Shown here piece by piece: positions 3,561 to 58,082 of a stretch of 64,000 bases of DNA. The stretch's first letter is position 1. Each line of letters starts with the position of its first letter. The notes under the pieces were generated by a model. The model saw only the letters and a program-made list of their open reading frames with translations, was not told the origin of the DNA and ran no database searches. Both the position numbers and the translations under genes were made by a program. This DNA comes from Minisyncoccota bacterium (GTDB taxonomy: Bacteria; Patescibacteriota; Minisyncoccia; UBA6257; UBA9933), in the NCBI GenBank assembly GCA_041653755.1, contig JBAZEU010000003.1, forward strand, positions 18,738-82,737, read 5' to 3'.

Positions 3561-5365
3561 AAGAAGCTATCCTTGATGATTTTGCCAAAGATTTAGATCT
3601 CATTGAGCTACCGCTCTCTGAAAAAGCTTTTAAGCTGGTAAAAGTGCTTATTCTTTTTGCGGTTTTGGCTGCAGTGGGAGAAATTTTGTTTTTGGGAGTT
3701 ATAAAAGGCAAATTCTATCAAAACAGAGCTCTTCTTAACGCTGCGGAAAAAACAACGCTTTTAGCCGAAAGGGGATTAATTTTTGACAGATTCGGCAAAC
3801 CCTTAGTTTCGAATTCTTCAACTTTCCGCCTGAATCTAAAAATTTCCAATTTTATCAAAGATAAAAACGAAGAAGAACGAACGATAAAAACGTTGAAAGA
3901 AGTTCTTGGTTTCACGACTGCTGATGTCGAAGATTTTTTGAAAAAGATAAAAGAAGTTGATTTAGAAACCCAAAACTCAATTGTCGTTAAAGAAATAACG
4001 CCTGCTCAAGCGCTGACATTGAAAAATTTAAACCTTGATTCTCTTGAGGTGGAAGAAGGATTCAAAAGAATTTACAATGAACCAGAAACTTTTTCTCATT
4101 TAATCGGCTATACGACCTTCACTAGCGCAAAAGACCTAGAGAAAGATTCTTCTTTGTCTTTTAATGACTTAGTTGGCAGAAGCGGTCTGGAAGCATATTA
4201 CAATAATGAGCTTAAAGGAGAAAATGGCATTATTCTTAGCTACCGCAACACCAAAGGAGAAATTATCGAAAAGAAACAGCTTAATAATCCTATTTCCGGA
4301 GAAAATCTTAATCTGACTATTGATTCTGAATTTCAATCATATTTCTATAACCGTATGCAAGAAGGGTTAAGAAGCTTAGGCAGAGACGCCGGGATTGGCA
4401 TTGCCATAAATCCTCAAAACGGAGAAGTTTTATCTTTAATAAGCATCCCCAGTTTCAACAATAATAAAATAACCCAAGAGGCCTTAACTAATCCCTCAAA
4501 ACCATTTTTCGATCGTGCGATAAGCGGCGCATACTCGCCCGGATCAACCATCAAACCGTTGGTGGCTATTGCGGCATTAAAAGAAAAAATAATCAGCCCT
4601 TTAAAAGAAATTCTATCAACCGGCTACATTGAAGTTCCTAATCCATATTATCCGGATAAGCCATCCCGCTTTCTTGACTGGAAACCTAATGGCTGGGTTA
4701 ATTTTTATTCGGCTATTGCCCGTTCTTGCAATATTTATTTTTACGAAGTCGGCGGCGGGTTTGAAGATCAAAAAGGTCTTGGCATCGAAAAATTAAAAAG
4801 TTACTGGGAAAAATTCGGTTTAGGAGAAAAAACTGGAATTGATTTGCCAGGCGAAGTAACAGGATTTTTGCCAGACGCTTCAACTAAAAAAGGAGGAGAT
4901 AAAATCTGGCGCGTAGGGGATACTTATAACGTTAGCATCGGCCAAGGAGATCTTTTACTTACTCCAATTCAATTAATAAATTATATCGCCTTGATTGCTG
5001 ACAACGGGAAAAATTATCGTCCTTTCGTTGATAAAAATATGGGAGTAAAACCCTTGAAGGACCTTTCAGACCTATTGCCTGAAATTAAAGAAGTTCAGAA
5101 AGGGATGATTGATGCCGTCATAAAGCCCTATGGCACCGCATATTCTTTGAACGACTTGCCGGTTAGCGTAGCGGCCAAAACTGGTTCTGCTCAAACCCAA
5201 AATAATACTGTCACTAATGCTCTTTTTGTAGGTTATGCGCCAGTTGAAAATCCTCAAATTGCAATTCTTGTATTGGTCGAGAATGCCAGAGAAGGAAGCT
5301 TGAACACATTACCGATAGCAAAAGACGTTCTGCTTTGGTATTATAATAAGCGAATCGCTCATTGA
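3533..5365 (+). CDS. mrdA: penicillin-binding protein 2 (peptidoglycan D,D-transpeptidase)
   Basis: N-terminal TM anchor, SxxK motif (PGSTIKP), SxN and KTG(S) motifs (AKTGSAQ); elongasome synteny. Confidence 0.85.
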   Translation: MAKNKEIYLEEAILDDFAKDLDLIELPLSEKAFKLVKVLILFAVLAAVGEILFLGVIKGKFYQNRALLNAAEKTTLLAERGLIFDRFGKPLVSNSSTFRLNLKISNFIKDKNEEERTIKTLKEVLGFTTADVEDFLKKIKEVDLETQNSIVVKEITPAQALTLKNLNLDSLEVEEGFKRIYNEPETFSHLIGYTTFTSAKDLEKDSSLSFNDLVGRSGLEAYYNNELKGENGIILSYRNTKGEIIEKKQLNNPISGENLNLTIDSEFQSYFYNRMQEGLRSLGRDAGIGIAINPQNGEVLSLISIPSFNNNKITQEALTNPSKPFFDRAISGAYSPGSTIKPLVAIAALKEKIISPLKEILSTGYIEVPNPYYPDKPSRFLDWKPNGWVNFYSAIARSCNIYFYEVGGGFEDQKGLGIEKLKSYWEKFGLGEKTGIDLPGEVTGFLPDASTKKGGDKIWRVGDTYNVSIGQGDLLLTPIQLINYIALIADNGKNYRPFVDKNMGVKPLKDLSDLLPEIKEVQKGMIDAVIKPYGTAYSLNDLPVSVAAKTGSAQTQNNTVTNALFVGYAPVENPQIAILVLVENAREGSLNTLPIAKDVLLWYYNKRIAH

Positions 5366-7148: not shown

Positions 7149-7596
7149 GCTCGTAGCGCAAATCGCTAAGTTCGGAACAGTCGGCGTAATGAACACCGTT
7201 ATAGATATTCTGGTTTTAAATTTACTAACCCAGATTTTCAAATTCAGAAAATCTTTTTCCATAAAAGGGAAAAGATTTATGATCGCTAATGTAATTTCCG
7301 TTACTATTTCGCTAATAAACAGTTTTATTTTCAACAGATATTGGACTTTCCAGGCAACCGGGAATGTTGCTTTCCAAGGAATAAAATTTATGACCGTAGC
7401 GCTGATAGGCGCATATCTCATCCAGCAGCCGGCATTCAATAAACTCTACAACAGCTTCTATTCGATTTTGCCATTTTTAAGACCAAAAGAAGGGGAGAAA
7501 AAAGACTTTTGGAGAATGAATATCTCTAAAGTAATTGCGATTCTTCTGGCGGCAGTTTGGGATTTCTTGGGATACAAGCTTTTTGCATTCAAGTAA
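7138..7596 (+). CDS. GtrA-family membrane protein (polysaccharide synthesis/flippase-associated)
   Basis: 152 aa, 4 TM, N-terminal VAQIAKFGTVGVMNTVIDILVLNLL typical of GtrA family. Confidence 0.6.
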   Translation: MLTKLVAQIAKFGTVGVMNTVIDILVLNLLTQIFKFRKSFSIKGKRFMIANVISVTISLINSFIFNRYWTFQATGNVAFQGIKFMTVALIGAYLIQQPAFNKLYNSFYSILPFLRPKEGEKKDFWRMNISKVIAILLAAVWDFLGYKLFAFK

Positions 7597-7750
7597 ACTG
7601 GGCTTGCCCAGTAGTGAGCCGAGCACAGGAACGCCTAGTCGTTTTCCTTAATAAGGTGTAAGAAATTACCAAATCTATATTTTGTTAGGTTAAGACAATA
7701 TTTTGCCAAAGGCGTTCTGGAAAACGAAGTACTCGATCTACTAACTGGGC

Positions 7751-7780
7751 TTGACTTTTCTGAAACTATCATGCTATAAT
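7751..7780 (+). promoter_or_regulatory. sigma70-type promoter (TTGACT-18nt-TATAAT)
   Basis: near-consensus -35 at 7751-7756 and -10 at 7775-7780 within a 740-nt intergenic region. Confidence 0.5.
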
Positions 7781-7787
7781 ACCGTCA

Positions 7788-7888
7788 GTGAGCGCTAGTA
7801 TTCTTTCGATTAATCGGAGTCGCAAGACGCCAACGAAAGAATCTTTCTCCAAGTACAAAACTCCGACTTATGTCGGAGTTTTGTTTTG
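7788..7888 (+). ncRNA. candidate ~100-nt small RNA bounded by promoter and intrinsic terminator
   Basis: transcript start ~8 nt after -10; internal stem attctttcg/cgaaagaat; terminator hairpin aaaactccgac-ttat-gtcggagtttt followed by GTTTTG (7857-7888); no ORF. Confidence 0.35.
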
Positions 7889-8664: not shown

Positions 8665-10993
8665 AAAACTTTTCGGCCGGCCTAATTTTTCTTTACTAAT
8701 AAAAAAAATAAACTCTCTCGAACCAACTCTTGAAAAATTATCCGATAGCGAGCTAAAAGCAAAAAACGAAGAACTCAAAAACAAATTCCAAGCTTCCGGG
8801 TTAAAAGAAGATTTTCTTCCTGACGCTTTTGCTTTAATCAGAGAGGTTTCCAAAAGAACTTTGAAGCAAAGACATTTTGACGTTCAGTTAATGGGCGGCA
8901 TTGCCCTTTCTCGCGGGCAAATTTCTGAAATGTTGACCGGTGAAGGAAAAACCTTAGCCGCAACAGCGCCGGCATATTTTCACGCTTTAACAAAAAAGGG
9001 AGTCCATATAATTACTGTCAACGACTATTTAGCCCGCCGGGATACTGTCTGGATGGGCCAAATATATGACTTTTTAGGCCTGAAAGTGGGTTGTCTTTGC
9101 CATGAAACCGCTTTTATCTATGATCCAGCATACAAACAGGAAACTAACCCCGAACTCGACAAAGAAAGAGATGTCTTGGGCGGCTTTAAGATTTTTCATG
9201 AATTTTTAAGACCAGTTTCCCGCCAAGAGGCCTATCGGGCTGATATTGTTTACGGAACCAACCATGAATTTGGCTTTGATTATTTGCGAGACAATCTAGC
9301 TTATAGCAGGAGCCAACAGACCCAAAGAAAACACTATTATGCCATTATCGATGAAATTGACAGCATCTTGATAGATGAATCAAGAACTCCTTTAATCATC
9401 GCCGCACCTGATTTAGAATCAAGTGATTTCTACAGAAAATTCGCCCGCATTGTCAGTTACTTAAAAGAAAACGAAGATTATACGATTGATGAAAAATCGA
9501 AAAGTGTTCAAATTACCAACGCCGGGATTGATAAAGTGGAAGAAATGACGAAGATACAAAATTTCTATGCTCCGGAAAATTTCCGCTTAGTTCATTATCT
9601 TGAAGAATCATTAAAAGCCAAAACATTATTCCATCGCGATAAAGATTATCTTATAAACGATGGCCAAATTTTAATTATTGATGAATTTACCGGTCGTGTG
9701 CTTCTGGGCAGACGTTATTCCGGCGGGCTCCACCAAGCCATTGAAGCGAAAGAAGGGGTAATTGTTCAACCCGAATCAAGAACTTTCGCTCAAATTACGC
9801 TTCAAAATTATTTTCGTCTTTATGAAAAAATTTCTGGGATGACCGGTACCGCTCAAACATCAGCTGAAGAATTTCACAAGGTCTATAATCTTGAGACAGT
9901 TTCCATTCCGTCAAATAAACCGATGATACGGAAAAATCTTCCCGATCTTATTTATAAAACTAAAATGGCAAAATATAAGGCCGTTATCGAAGAAATAAAA
10001 GATCGATATTCAGCCGGCCAGCCGATTCTGGTAGGAACGACTTCGGTGGAACAAAACGAAATTTTTTCAAAATTACTTACTGCCGCTGGCATCCCTCATG
10101 AAGTTTTGAACGCTAAAAATCATGAAAGAGAAGGAGAAATTATCGCCCAAGCCGGAAAATTAAAAGCTGTTACTGTCGCTACGAATATGGCTGGCAGGGG
10201 AGTAGACATAATTCTTGGCGGAAATCCTTCTACTCCTGAAGAAGCGCAAAAAATAAAGGATTTAGGCGGACTTCATATAATCGGTACTGAACGTCACGAA
10301 GCCAGAAGGATAGACGACCAGCTTAGAGGCAGAAGCGGTAGGCAGGGCGATCCCGGTTCTTCTCGGTTCTTTCTTTCTTTAGAGGACGATTTGATGCGCA
10401 TCTTTGGAGGAGATAGAGTAAGAAACTTGATGTCTGTCTTGAAAATCTCTGAAGACCACCCCATCGAATCAAAGATGATTTCGAAAGTGGTTACTGAGGC
10501 GCAGAAAAAAGTTGAAGGATTTAATTTTGACTTAAGAAAACATCTTTTGGAATATGACGATGTTTTAAACAAGCAAAGAAATGCCATTTATAAAAAACGC
10601 CAAGAAATTTTAGAGAAAATGTCGGAGAATAAAGCCGATGACATACTCGAAGAGTTACTCACTGACGATGAGAGCAATATTCCTGATAATTCGATAGATC
10701 AGGCCAGTCAGCAGGTTACTCCGCCCAAAGTAAAGCCGGAAGTTTTAGAAAAAATTAAAACCTTTAATAACGAACAAAAAAATATTCTTTGCCAGAAGAT
10801 ATTATCCGTCTTAGATATGCTTTGGATGAGTCATTTGGAAAATCTTGAAGCGCTTTCGGAATCAGTGCGTATCCGCGCCTATGGACAAAAAGATCCGCTG
10901 GTGGAATACAAATACGAATCCCGTGGGCTATTCAAAGACCTGCTTGATAATTTTAAAAACTCTATTAAGCAAAACATAGAGCAACTCATATAA
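8657..10993 (+). CDS. secA: preprotein translocase ATPase SecA
   Basis: 778 aa; SecA DEAD-like motor motifs (MLTGEGKTL, DEIDSILIDE, GTTSVE...), C-terminal scaffold region. Confidence 0.9.
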   Translation: MFKKLFGRPNFSLLIKKINSLEPTLEKLSDSELKAKNEELKNKFQASGLKEDFLPDAFALIREVSKRTLKQRHFDVQLMGGIALSRGQISEMLTGEGKTLAATAPAYFHALTKKGVHIITVNDYLARRDTVWMGQIYDFLGLKVGCLCHETAFIYDPAYKQETNPELDKERDVLGGFKIFHEFLRPVSRQEAYRADIVYGTNHEFGFDYLRDNLAYSRSQQTQRKHYYAIIDEIDSILIDESRTPLIIAAPDLESSDFYRKFARIVSYLKENEDYTIDEKSKSVQITNAGIDKVEEMTKIQNFYAPENFRLVHYLEESLKAKTLFHRDKDYLINDGQILIIDEFTGRVLLGRRYSGGLHQAIEAKEGVIVQPESRTFAQITLQNYFRLYEKISGMTGTAQTSAEEFHKVYNLETVSIPSNKPMIRKNLPDLIYKTKMAKYKAVIEEIKDRYSAGQPILVGTTSVEQNEIFSKLLTAAGIPHEVLNAKNHEREGEIIAQAGKLKAVTVATNMAGRGVDIILGGNPSTPEEAQKIKDLGGLHIIGTERHEARRIDDQLRGRSGRQGDPGSSRFFLSLEDDLMRIFGGDRVRNLMSVLKISEDHPIESKMISKVVTEAQKKVEGFNFDLRKHLLEYDDVLNKQRNAIYKKRQEILEKMSENKADDILEELLTDDESNIPDNSIDQASQQVTPPKVKPEVLEKIKTFNNEQKNILCQKILSVLDMLWMSHLENLEALSESVRIRAYGQKDPLVEYKYESRGLFKDLLDNFKNSIKQNIEQLI

Positions 10994-56067: not shown

Positions 56068-57103
56068 TTACTGTCTAAGTATATCACTTTCAATGAAGAT
56101 TTCAATCTCGCCTTCTAAAACTTTTTCCGCTTGGGTTGTTTCCACGCCAGTTCTTGTGTCTTTTACCAATTTATACGGGTTTAAAACATAAGAACGAATC
56201 TGATTCCCCCACTCTGGTTTAACTTTTGTCCGCAGTTTCGATAATTCCTGCTCTTGCTGGCCTTCCATTAATTTAATCAACTTAGCTTTCAGAATTTTTA
56301 AAGCTCTCTCTCTATTTTGCGCCTGTGATCTTTCAACTTGGCATGCGACAGAAATATTTGTCGGAAGATGAATAACCCTTACGCTGGTCTCAACTTTATT
56401 TACGTTTTGGCCGCCAGGACCGGAAGACCTGAAAAATTCAAATTTTAAATCCTCTTCCGGAATTTTGAATTCTTTTTCATCAATTTCCGGCAGTTCCGGC
56501 AAAACTTCTACTAACGCAAAAGAAGTGTGCCGTTTTTGCTCTGGTGAAAAAGGAGAAATCCTGACCAAGCGATGAACTCCGGCTTCTTTTTTTAAATAGC
56601 CATAAGCATAATCGCCTTCTATCTCTACGGTAACATCGCCCGAACCCTCATCAATTGTTTTTACTTTCCAGCCCTGTTTCTGACTGTATTTAGAATACAT
56701 TTCACAAAGCATCCTAGCCCAATCCTCCGCATCTTTACCGCCAGCGCCGGCAAAGACAGATAAAATCGCCGACTGCTTGTCGTATTTTCCAGTAAAAAGA
56801 GTTTTGAGTTCTAATTTAGTGATTACCCGTTTTACCTCGTAAAATTTATCTTCATTGAAATCAACTTCCAACTCAACCAAAGATTTCTGGATTTTTTCAA
56901 ACTGCTCAACCAATTCTTTTATTTCTCCGAATTCTTTCAATTTTTCTTCGGCTCTCTGGCGTTCCTTCCAAATATCCGGATCGCTTATCTCGAATTCAAG
57001 TTCTTTTAAACGGATTTTTTTAGCGGCGATGTCAAAGCCGCCCGCCTAAGCGGCGGGTTTGCTCTTGCAGTTCTTGAAATTGTTGTAATAAAGTCTCGTT
57101 CAT
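56068..57103 (-). CDS. prfB: peptide chain release factor 2 with programmed +1 ribosomal frameshift
   Basis: ORF0 MNETLLQQFQELQEQTRRLGGRL ends at CTT TGA C (plus-strand 57031-57037) preceded by SD-like GGCGGGCGG; +1 frame continues LDIAAKKIRLKE...; SPF and GGQ motifs. Confidence 0.9.
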
Positions 57104-57218
57104 AATGTACTTTTATATTTTACCACAAACTCTTGACACCATCAAAGAATCTTTGCTATGATTTATTTTTTATAGTAACTGAACCTTACAAAATTAAAAA
57201 CGAAAGGAGGTGAAAACC

Positions 57219-57362
57219 ATGATACACGGCTGTAGAGGTCACACGGCAACGCAGATCAGCGGAAGAAGAAGCCACGCCAGCGGCACGAAAACGAAAGCAG
57301 TACACGGCGCAGCCCACCTGCGGATACAGGGCTCAAGCGTCCATTGTTGTCTAACGCTCTGA
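57219..57362 (+). CDS. putative 47-aa Cys/His/Gly-rich small ORF (MIHGCRGHTATQISGRRSHASGTKTKAVHGAAHLRIQGSSVHCCLTL) at the 5' end of a GC-rich noncoding unit
   Basis: perfect SD AAAGGAGGTGA 5 nt before ATG; not in ORF track (<60 aa); coding status uncertain, may be leader peptide or fortuitous ORF inside a structured RNA. Confidence 0.3.
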   Translation: MIHGCRGHTATQISGRRSHASGTKTKAVHGAAHLRIQGSSVHCCLTL

Positions 57363-57652
57363 CGACGGAACCGGCCAAAAGGCCTTGGAGGAAGCGGAAT
57401 GCCATTTTTGACTTACCGCTGTAGAGATCCTTAAATCCCTTATAGAAAAATTTTTCAGGGAGTCGTCTATAAGGGTAATAACGTTTCCGATGGATTTCTA
57501 TCCATCCCTAGCCTGCTCCGTGTTCAGCATTCGCTAACACAGAGCAGGCCCCACATCATTATTCATTCATACCTTTCACCTTTCCGCCGTTCCGCTGAGA
57601 ACTCAGAATTTATTTACTGGAGGTACAAATCCTCCTCTGGCGGAACCAAACC

Positions 57653-57695
57653 ACGAGCGTGTGTTGTCTCAGACAATTACACGCTCGTTTTTTTA
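57653..57695 (+). terminator. strong intrinsic terminator ending the 57.2-57.7 kb GC-rich unit
   Basis: acgagcgtgt-N16-acacgctcgt followed by TTTTTTTATTT. Confidence 0.75.
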
Positions 57696-57762
57696 TTTAT
57701 TAACCAAAAAATATTTACTGTCTATTATTAACGATCGTTAAAGATAGACAGTAAAATAAAAA

Positions 57763-57800
57763 GAGCGCAGACCAATATGGTTACGCTCTTTCTTTTTTAT
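57763..57800. terminator. bidirectional intrinsic terminator (serves minus-strand tRNA cluster)
   Basis: agagcg-cagaccaatatggtta-cgctct with T-runs on both strands. Confidence 0.6.
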
Positions 57801-57828
57801 CTCCTTTTTAAGGAGAAGAGGCCGGGGC

Positions 57829-57922
57829 AGGATTCGAACCTGCATGGACTTATCGTCCTGCGAGTTTGCAGCCCGCTTTGCCTGTGCCTTATTACTCTTC
57901 GGCTACCCGACCGTTAATTATT
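57829..57922 (-). tRNA. atypical 94-nt tRNA-like gene, candidate anticodon GCA, long variable arm and ~10 extra nt in D region
   Basis: acceptor GGTCGGG/CCCGGCC, T-arm GCAGG-TTCGAAT-CCTGC, variable arm GGAC-GATAA-GTCC, anticodon stem GCGGG/CTCGC loop CTGCAAA (U33, A37), D-arm GCC-12nt-GGC; 5' half too long for canonical cloverleaf. Confidence 0.45.
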
Positions 57923-58007
57923 TTTTAACGAACTAAGAAACAAAAAAATCTAAAAATTAGATCATTTTTATGATAATACTATAAAATTCGAGAAAAGTCA
58001 ACTATCT

Positions 58008-58082
58008 TGGAGCCGGAGGTGAGATTTGAACTCACGACCTTTGCTTTACGAAAGCACTGCTCTACCACTGAGCTACTCCGGC
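58008..58082 (-). tRNA. tRNA-Thr (anticodon CGT), CCA encoded
   Basis: minus-strand GCCGGAG-TA-GCTC-AGTGGTA-GAGC-A-GTGCT-TTCGTAA-AGCAA-AGGTC-GTGAG-TTCAAAT-CTCAC-CTCCGGC-T-CCA. Confidence 0.85.

Follow-up and report, generated by a model that had tools for sequence, protein, structure and literature searches.

The window analysed here is a 64,000-nt stretch of DNA from a Minisyncoccota bacterium (contig JBAZEU010000003.1), and the subject of this work is an odd transfer RNA (tRNA) gene with a cysteine anticodon that it carries. Along the minus strand, the genes and features around it follow the order YchF, PhoH/PIN, GlyRS, tRNA-Thr(CGT), the odd tRNA, hairpins, a 540-nt GC-rich stretch, prfB, ftsE and ftsX. 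The odd gene is 94 nt long and spans 57819-57912 on the minus strand, position i of the tRNA corresponding to window coordinate 57913-i; an earlier note on this DNA had put it 10 nt higher, at 57829-57922. It has a class II architecture, the anticodon GCA and a discriminator U73 at 57819, and CCA is not encoded. The match of the sequence to tRNA is far beyond chance expectation, and the gene is a genuine tRNA gene with a class II body plan.

The tRNA opens with GGUCGGG (positions 1-7; 57906-57912, minus strand), which pairs with CCCGGCC (positions 87-93; 57820-57826) to form a 7-bp acceptor stem. The first pair of this stem is G1:C72, its only wobble is U3-G70 and its pair probabilities are 0.98-1.0; the discriminator U73 follows at position 94. 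UA at positions 8-9 leads into the D-region, where GCC (positions 10-12), the 5' strand of the D-stem, is followed by GAAGAGUAAUAA (13-24), GGC (25-27), ACA (28-30), a second GGC (31-33) and AAA (34-36). The anticodon arm GCGGG-CUGCAAA-CUCGC (57860-57876, minus strand; positions 37-41, 42-48 and 49-53) has 5 bp, including one G-U, and is seen in the sequence, in the minimum free energy (MFE) fold and in the ARAGORN drawing. Its loop carries C32, U33, the anticodon GCA (positions 44-46; 57867-57869), A37 and A38. The variable region of 16 nt (57844-57859, minus strand; positions 54-69) consists of A, a 4-bp stem GGAC/GUCC around the loop GAUAA, and AU, with a pair probability of 0.99. The T-arm GCAGG-UUCGAAU-CCUGC (57827-57843, minus strand; positions 70-74, 75-81 and 82-86) has 5 bp and a canonical T-loop, both in the sequence and in the covariance-model alignments.

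All 24 stem pairs are standard, two of them being G-U, and the acceptor/T branch is 7/5, with a 7-bp acceptor, a 5-bp T-stem and a variable arm that has its own stem. The acceptor stem, T-arm, variable arm and anticodon stem-loop that had been proposed from the sequence are all there, fully paired and on the minus strand, and U33, the anticodon GCA, A37 and the long variable arm are found in sequence and fold alike. The GC content of the gene is 58.5%, and that of its flanks 20-32%.

What sets the gene apart is its aberrant D-arm (57880-57903, minus strand), in which two GGC triplets, at 57886-57888 and at 57880-57882, are alternative partners of GCC (57901-57903). When the first GGC closes the stem, the D-loop of 12 nt is of normal size and reads G18-U19, with G19 lost, and an 8-nt bulge, CAGGCAAA, precedes the anticodon stem. 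When the second GGC closes it, the D-loop has 18 nt, and A14, a possible G18G19 and the purine before the stem are all kept; in this register, the L-shape contacts (U8, A14, G18G19, the T-loop and A15:U48) can still form. Energetically, there is next to nothing between the two registers (-36.8 and -36.4 kcal/mol), which share the ensemble at about 50% each, and the second GGC is chosen as D-stem closure by both covariance models used here, namely the Rfam tRNA model and R1, which is built from 66 aligned class II tRNA-Cys sequences described below. The AAA junction between D-stem and anticodon stem (57877-57879, minus strand), which stands in place of the single nucleotide 26 of normal tRNAs, appears as an 'aa' insertion in both covariance alignments. 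Overall, the surplus on the D-arm side amounts to about 8-10 nt, in agreement with the roughly 10 extra nucleotides reported before, and is confined to the D-loop and the D/anticodon junction; in the covariance-model alignments, the surplus bases sit solely in loop and junction positions and the helices are free of them. The D-region also holds an imperfect 6-nt tandem repeat (AGGCAC/AGGCAA).

The Rfam tRNA model (RF00005) gives the gene 36.4 bits (E = 5e-4 in the 64-kb window), above its gathering score of 29; a lack of any covariance-model tRNA score, which the earlier note had named, in combination with a normal tRNA-Cys elsewhere, as grounds for refutation, is therefore not what is found. 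The alignment is full-length and covers positions 1-71 of the model, the inserted bases falling at three places (the D-loop, the variable region and behind position 26), and tRNA is the top match of its clan for this gene in the Rfam scan. In line with these scores, the MFE fold is a cloverleaf with a long variable arm (-36.8 kcal/mol, z = -2.6), leaving 9 nt unpaired between the D and anticodon arms. ARAGORN calls the gene tRNA-Cys(gca), starting at 57904 with an inferior internal acceptor, AGCCGAA, because the extra bases cannot be accommodated. We rejected this start, since its acceptor forms 4/7 pairs as compared with the fully paired GGUCGGG/CCCGGCC.

Alternative cloverleaves were considered by hand. 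Among class II tRNAs, the discriminator is normally G73 in tRNA-Ser and A73 in tRNA-Leu and tRNA-Tyr. A standard tRNA of one of these three kinds in another fold, which had been allowed for at the outset, is not found in the hand check: beyond the D-arm, GCGGG/CUCGC with GCA is the one stem of 5 bp that closes a 7-nt loop, and the discriminator is U. Taking the next 17 nt after either GGC as the anticodon arm gives no stem, these two other registers being unpaired when checked by hand.

The class II body of the odd tRNA carries the cysteine identity set of GCA, U73, G1:C72 and A37. U73 and GCA are the main identity elements for CysRS, and tRNA-Cys most often has G1:C72 as its first pair (PMC5389517). 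An encoded CCA is absent also from the tRNA-Gly gene and one tRNA-Gln gene of the window and must therefore be added enzymatically.

A long-arm tRNA with a cysteine anticodon had been regarded as non-canonical in itself. This holds for the present copy, which is aberrant, but not for the design, of which we collected at least 71 distinct examples, mostly on viral contigs. These contigs were scanned with the pattern CTGCAAA, 19-30 nt, GGTTCGAATCC, and the matched loci were re-read with ARAGORN; the viral loci (L005-L124) and six metagenome loci (among them L125 and L127-L130 in our numbering) yield long-variable-arm GCA tRNAs of 80-93 nt. Among the matches listed, 67 of 71 (94%) have U73. One further locus, L138, is Rhizobium phage B1VFA, where an 84-nt family member is annotated as tRNA-Cys-GCA (MT770738.1, bases 344-427), and features annotated as tRNA-Cys are also overlapped by weaker, partial matches in two other phages, Pseudomonas phage D6 and Xanthomonas phage XacN1. 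An alignment of 66 of the 71 sequences shows compensatory changes at 18 of 20 pairs, in all four stems. Judged by their sequences, the long-arm tRNAs with GCA and U73 are a genuine class II cysteine tRNA family, because CysRS recognises its tRNA mainly by U73 and GCA. No description of a family of 7/5 class II tRNA-Cys was found in the literature searched, where selC* tRNA-Cys, allo-tRNAs and nematode nev-tRNAs come nearest, and the GenBank label is plain tRNA-Cys.

Two side observations came from the same collection. Viral locus L030 carries an 88-nt long-arm tRNA-Cys (9858-9945) and a 71-nt short-arm tRNA-Cys (9952-10022), seven bases apart, and therefore both designs can coexist in one genome. 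In addition, some matches of the scan were not called as tRNAs (L111, L124, L015, L017, L049, L067, L096, L099 and L112) and were read by eye. One type among them seems to lack a D-arm and to have an acceptor of 8 bp, an anticodon-like stem of 6 bp and a variable arm, and the other recurring type has a terminal stem of about 10 bp around the CUGCAAA loop together with a T-arm.

The odd tRNA has much in common with the phage class II tRNA-Cys, namely the 7/5 branch, a 3-bp D-stem, a variable arm within the family range of 13-22 nt, the CUGCAAA loop, U73, the T-loop UUCGAAU and, in most members, G1:C72. The closest members share, in addition, the GGUC.GG-UA-GC 5' end and the GCAGG/CCUGC T-stem. 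It differs from them by about 10 extra nt, with a D-loop of 18 as compared with 9-13 nt and a pre-anticodon junction of 3 nt as compared with 1. The D-loop of the family reads GAGYGG...GAA within those 9-13 nt and is accompanied by a single nucleotide 26, and the odd tRNA departs from this pattern with either an 18-nt loop plus AAA or a 12-nt loop that lacks G19 plus an 8-nt bulge. Moreover, it is chromosomal in a Paceibacterota bacterium, whereas the family is found in phage tRNA arrays. The R1 model gives the odd tRNA 56.1 bits (E = 2e-14), which makes it the top match in the window, about 20 bits above the generic tRNA model. Sequence comparison places the odd tRNA as similar in kind to the class II tRNA-Cys, in apparent close kinship with no sampled member.

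The surroundings of the gene are those of a bacterial chromosome. GlyRS, upstream of the odd tRNA, is identical to NCBI protein MFA5386451.1 from a metagenome-assembled genome of Candidatus Paceibacterota, and the GC content is 36-39% in the window and about 37% in the genome. A Pfam search of the 30 larger open reading frames (ORFs) of the window identified ordinary chromosomal genes (MreB, PBP2, SecA, PGK, GluRS, MurG, FtsW, DnaX, FtsEX and RF2), and the window also encodes RNase P RNA. The same 30 ORFs include no gene for SerRS, SepRS, SepCysS, PSTK or SelA, no selA, selB or selD homologue, and neither selB* nor cysS*. The prfB gene (56068-57103, minus strand) has a +1 frameshift site, CUU UGA C, at 57031-57037 after a first frame of 23 codons; this programmed UGA frameshift site means that UGA is an ordinary stop codon in the organism.

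The neighbouring tRNA-Thr(CGT), expected from the earlier reading, lies at 58011-58082 on the minus strand and scores 70.6 bits. Directly after it, about 60 nt upstream of the odd tRNA, there is a sigma-70-like promoter site (TTGACT-17 nt-TATTAT; 57973-58001, minus strand) that scores 10/12 in the promoter scan and is a match to consensus alone. A terminator had likewise been placed after the gene, and a terminator-like hairpin with a U-run indeed lies 20-70 nt downstream (57752-57799, minus strand). It is an inverted repeat with the core AGAGCG/CGCUCU and a 16-nt loop, followed by UUUUUAUUUU. A simple terminator scan does not report this hairpin, because its loop of 16 nt exceeds the limit of that scan (8 nt).

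Between tRNA-Thr(CGT) and prfB lies a lineage-specific intergenic segment of about 907 bp (57104-58010), which contains both the odd tRNA and a GC-rich, structured region. The latter is a stretch of about 540 nt (57165-57705; 50% GC), convergent with the odd tRNA and within the same insert. It folds better than its shuffles (z = -5.8 on the plus strand and -4.6 on the minus strand), and it has a promoter-like site at 57133-57162 (plus strand; 11/12 match, extended -10) and, on the plus strand, an intrinsic terminator with hairpin and T-run at 57648-57700. Searches for an Rfam match, another copy or a viral match to this stretch returned none, and it has no credible ORF, the one notable ORF being of 50 aa, with a strong Shine-Dalgarno sequence and no homologues. 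Its predicted folding and signals suggest that the stretch beside the tRNA could be an undescribed large structured RNA.

Relatives of the bacterium show how variable this site is. The closest retrievable one (L001) has a GlyRS that is 83% identical and keeps the order YchF...GlyRS-tRNA-Thr...prfB-ftsEX, and its tRNA-Thr/prfB gap is 305 bp long, contains a GIY-YIG gene and lacks the odd tRNA. In that relative (positions 7350-7790), the small GIY-YIG endonuclease gene has a complete tRNA-Thr(CGT) on one side and a copy of its 3' half on the other, with a short 5'-fragment-like sequence upstream, an arrangement that looks like the insertion of a homing endonuclease into a tRNA gene. Relatives at 77-79% identity keep GlyRS-tRNA-Thr(CGT), after which other sequence follows (L133/L134 and L136/L137). 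The odd tRNA and the insert of about 907 bp are absent from every retrievable GlyRS relative, the closer ones having tRNA-Thr(CGT) downstream of GlyRS. By these comparisons, the tRNA-Thr/prfB gap is a demonstrably variable site. Given that the gene lies in a segment of about 900 bp found in this lineage only, its most likely origin is horizontal acquisition, the site of entry being a hot spot beside a tRNA gene. The earlier note had also suggested the remnant of an integration site; this idea finds no footing, since there is no duplicated tRNA-Thr end and there are no att-like or flanking direct repeats.

Homologues were sought with exact-match pattern scans that required GGTTCGAATCC and a fixed anticodon-stem or D-arm motif and that catch close relatives only. 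Among metagenome contigs, the pattern GGCTGCAAACYC...GGTTCGAATCC returned 6 unrelated GC-rich class II tRNA-Cys genes, and among 185,579 species-representative genomes a pattern for the enlarged D-side returned 2 chance matches that are not tRNAs. The same two patterns gave zero matches in viral contigs, where the sole match to the 3' half of the odd tRNA is an unrelated giant-virus tRNA-Met. A BLAST search of cultured phages, run with the odd tRNA and with the complete insert, yielded nothing significant. As a side observation, a 498-kb viral contig (L139) has GGTCGGG near 4757, upstream of an ARAGORN tRNA-Met at 4634-4707. There, the span from GGTCGGG to CCCGGCC (within 4634-4760) combines the acceptor and T-arm sequence of the odd tRNA with A73 and a long internal insertion; this resemblance is probably coincidental.

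Our preferred reading, in which belief and doubt are evenly balanced, is that the gene encodes a class II tRNA-Cys, likely of horizontal origin, that still serves as an accessory cysteine tRNA. It builds on what is shown: the gene itself with its stems, the identity nucleotides, the restriction of the gene to this lineage and the occurrence of such a family in phages. The odd tRNA would be transcribed from its own promoter up to the downstream hairpin and trimmed by RNase P, the window itself encoding the RNA of this enzyme. CCA would be added post-transcriptionally, CysRS would charge the tRNA via U73 and GCA, and the product would read UGC and UGU. In favour of such activity count the promoter-like site, the hairpin with its U-run, the intact stems, the 58.5% GC amid AT-rich flanks, the restriction of the surplus bases to loops and junctions, the tertiary contacts available in one register and the lack of an encoded CCA, shared with tRNA-Gly and one tRNA-Gln. 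Several observations weigh against it. The enlarged D-region matches none of the 66 aligned class II tRNA-Cys, among which no D-loop insertion occurs, and we know of no active tRNA that has an 18-nt D-loop together with a 3-nt junction, or a lost G19 together with an 8-nt bulge. The R1 score of 56.1 bits compares with 72-93 bits for family members and about 55-75 bits for unrelated class II tRNAs of the same phage arrays, and membership therefore rests on GCA and U73. In-silico folding gives the anticodon and T stems a probability of just 46-48% or so. The exact-match scans of the metagenome, species-representative and viral collections found no homologue of this architecture, and as a consequence neither covariation nor conservation speaks for this copy. 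Furthermore, relatives manage without it, so that it is dispensable and could be decaying, and the AGGCAC/AGGCAA repeat suggests a slippage lesion. The departure from all 66 relatives, the tandem repeat, the absence from syntenic relatives and the lack of a homologue in the three collections are what a young, decaying relic would lead us to expect, that is, a class II tRNA-Cys that came as cargo of a phage or mobile element and whose D-arm was disabled by slippage, with a canonical tRNA-Cys working elsewhere in the genome. The loss of G19 in one D-stem register and the different mobile gene (GIY-YIG) at the same intergenic site of the closest relative point the same way, and we see this as a serious though minor possibility. 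It sits poorly, however, with helices that are intact in 24 of 24 pairs and GC-rich in a genome of 37% GC with intergenic DNA at 20-32%, with changes that all spare the stems, and with the preservation of the identity nucleotides, the T-loop and the promoter-like site. A register that keeps A14 and G18G19 is also available, and it is the one chosen by both covariance models. The short insertion and the pseudo-tRNA named as options in the earlier note are still the two live readings.

The remaining explanations appear less convincing. The transcript could be a tRNA-like RNA that works outside translation, for example as a decoy, a target of recombination or a signal for processing, and that is tied to the 540-nt RNA region or to the mobile element that brought in both. 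It is convergent to, and in the same insert as, this structured GC-rich region, which has a promoter and a terminator of its own, and some irregular tRNAs are charged but unused in translation, or linked to toxin-antitoxin systems or transposable elements (PMC5389517). A full anticodon loop (U33, GCA, A37) and U73 would be needless for such roles, no att-like repeats were found at the insert and no second example links the tRNA and the 540-nt region, all of which makes this explanation unlikely. A dual identity, with SerRS loading serine on the tRNA, would lead either to Cys-to-Ser ambiguity or to a Ser-tRNA(Cys) intermediate for tRNA-dependent cysteine synthesis. The odd tRNA has C11:G24 and G2:C71, which we take to be identity elements of E. 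coli tRNA-Ser. SerRS recognises its tRNAs through a long variable arm and through G73 or U73 (PMC5389517), and indirect Cys-tRNA synthesis via SepRS and SepCysS occurs in some Parcubacteria (PMC5424206), which also counts for mischarging. Against it stands the combination of U73 and GCA, which is the CysRS set; U73 occurs in 94% of the matches listed that have a long arm and GCA, an argument for charging with cysteine, and none of the genes for SerRS, SepRS, SepCysS, PSTK or SelA is among the 30 ORFs searched; we consider mischarging quite unlikely. One might go further and imagine an active tRNA with a record-size 18-nt D-loop, recognised by both SerRS and CysRS because a serine-type long variable arm is joined to the cysteine anticodon and U73, and acting in this bacterium with its reduced genome as a source of deliberate Cys/Ser ambiguity or as the entry point of a Ser-tRNA(Cys) route to tRNA-dependent cysteine synthesis, an idea that we would rate as very improbable. 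Hardly credible, finally, is an allo-tRNA, a selC*-type or a selenocysteine (Sec)-like tRNA of 8/4, 9/3 or 8/5 type that recodes cysteine codons, even though a long variable arm, U73 and GCA are common to selC* tRNA-Cys (PMC5389517). The branch is unambiguously 7/5 and the eighth pair would be U-C; there is neither a 6-bp D-stem with a tetraloop nor an extended anticodon stem; selA, selB and selD are missing from the 30 larger ORFs; and RF2 with a UGA frameshift site indicates ordinary use of UGA as a stop. The allo-tRNA (8/4, 9/3) and Sec-like ideas of the earlier note have accordingly been abandoned: the 7/5 branch is clean, U8 would stand opposite C, and the 6-bp D-stem with a tetraloop and the 6-bp anticodon stem are both missing.

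If the accessory cysteine tRNA that we favour is active, a long-arm design found here mainly in phages and tRNA arrays would have been taken up by a candidate-phylum bacterium, and the tRNA core would tolerate a D-loop or hinge far above textbook limits. Such tolerance, if true, bears on tRNA engineering and on the annotation of odd tRNAs. If the gene is a relic, the tRNA-Thr/prfB gap would be an insertion hot spot in these small genomes. The large, covarying family of phage class II tRNA-Cys merits a separate study.

In comparison with known tRNAs, the odd tRNA shares GCA, U73, G1:C72, A37, the 7/5 branch and the canonical T-loop with the canonical bacterial class I tRNA-Cys. The latter has a variable loop of 4-5 nt, a 4-bp D-stem, a D-loop of 7-11 nt and a length of about 71-75 nt, as against the 94 nt found here. 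With selC* tRNA-Cys, it has in common the long variable arm, U73 and GCA, selC* tRNAs having also UCA (PMC5389517). The selC* tRNAs mimic tRNA-Sec, with longer acceptor and anticodon stems and, in delta-proteobacteria, an 8/4 branch with a bulged A51a (PMC5389517), and they come from genomes that possess the complete Sec machinery, in some cases along with selB* and cysS* (PMC5389517; Mukai et al., Nucleic Acids Res 2017). In contrast, the odd tRNA has a 7/5 branch and a 5-bp anticodon stem. Membership of the selC* fold was rejected in view of that branch, of U8 facing C and of a 5-bp anticodon stem with A-A beyond it, and membership of tRNA-Sec since the 8/5 branch, the 6-bp D-stem, UCA and G73 are all missing. 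More generally, 8/4, 9/3 and 8/5 folds are impossible, as the eighth acceptor pair is U-C.

The allo-tRNAs and the irregular 'E-loop' tRNAs of soil metatranscriptomes are, like the odd tRNA, bacterial tRNAs with a long variable arm and often U73 or G73, and one E-loop group has an 'extra loop' and U73 (PMC5389517). Allo-tRNAs are defined by an 8/4 or 9/3 branch and a Sec-like D-arm, neither of which the odd tRNA has; a 7/5 branch and a 3-bp D-stem with a large loop, where 8/4 or 9/3 and a long D-stem with a tetraloop are required, led us to reject membership of this group. In this regard, the nematode nev-tRNAs offer a further parallel, since they too combine a class II body with an anticodon other than Ser, Leu or Tyr, in their case Gly or Ile (PMC3333845). 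These eukaryotic tRNAs reportedly decode an alternative code for leucine, following the body plan and not the anticodon (PMC3333845). In the odd tRNA, in contrast to nev-tRNAs, the discriminator is co-adapted to the anticodon (U73 with GCA), and this co-adaptation suggests correct charging with cysteine.

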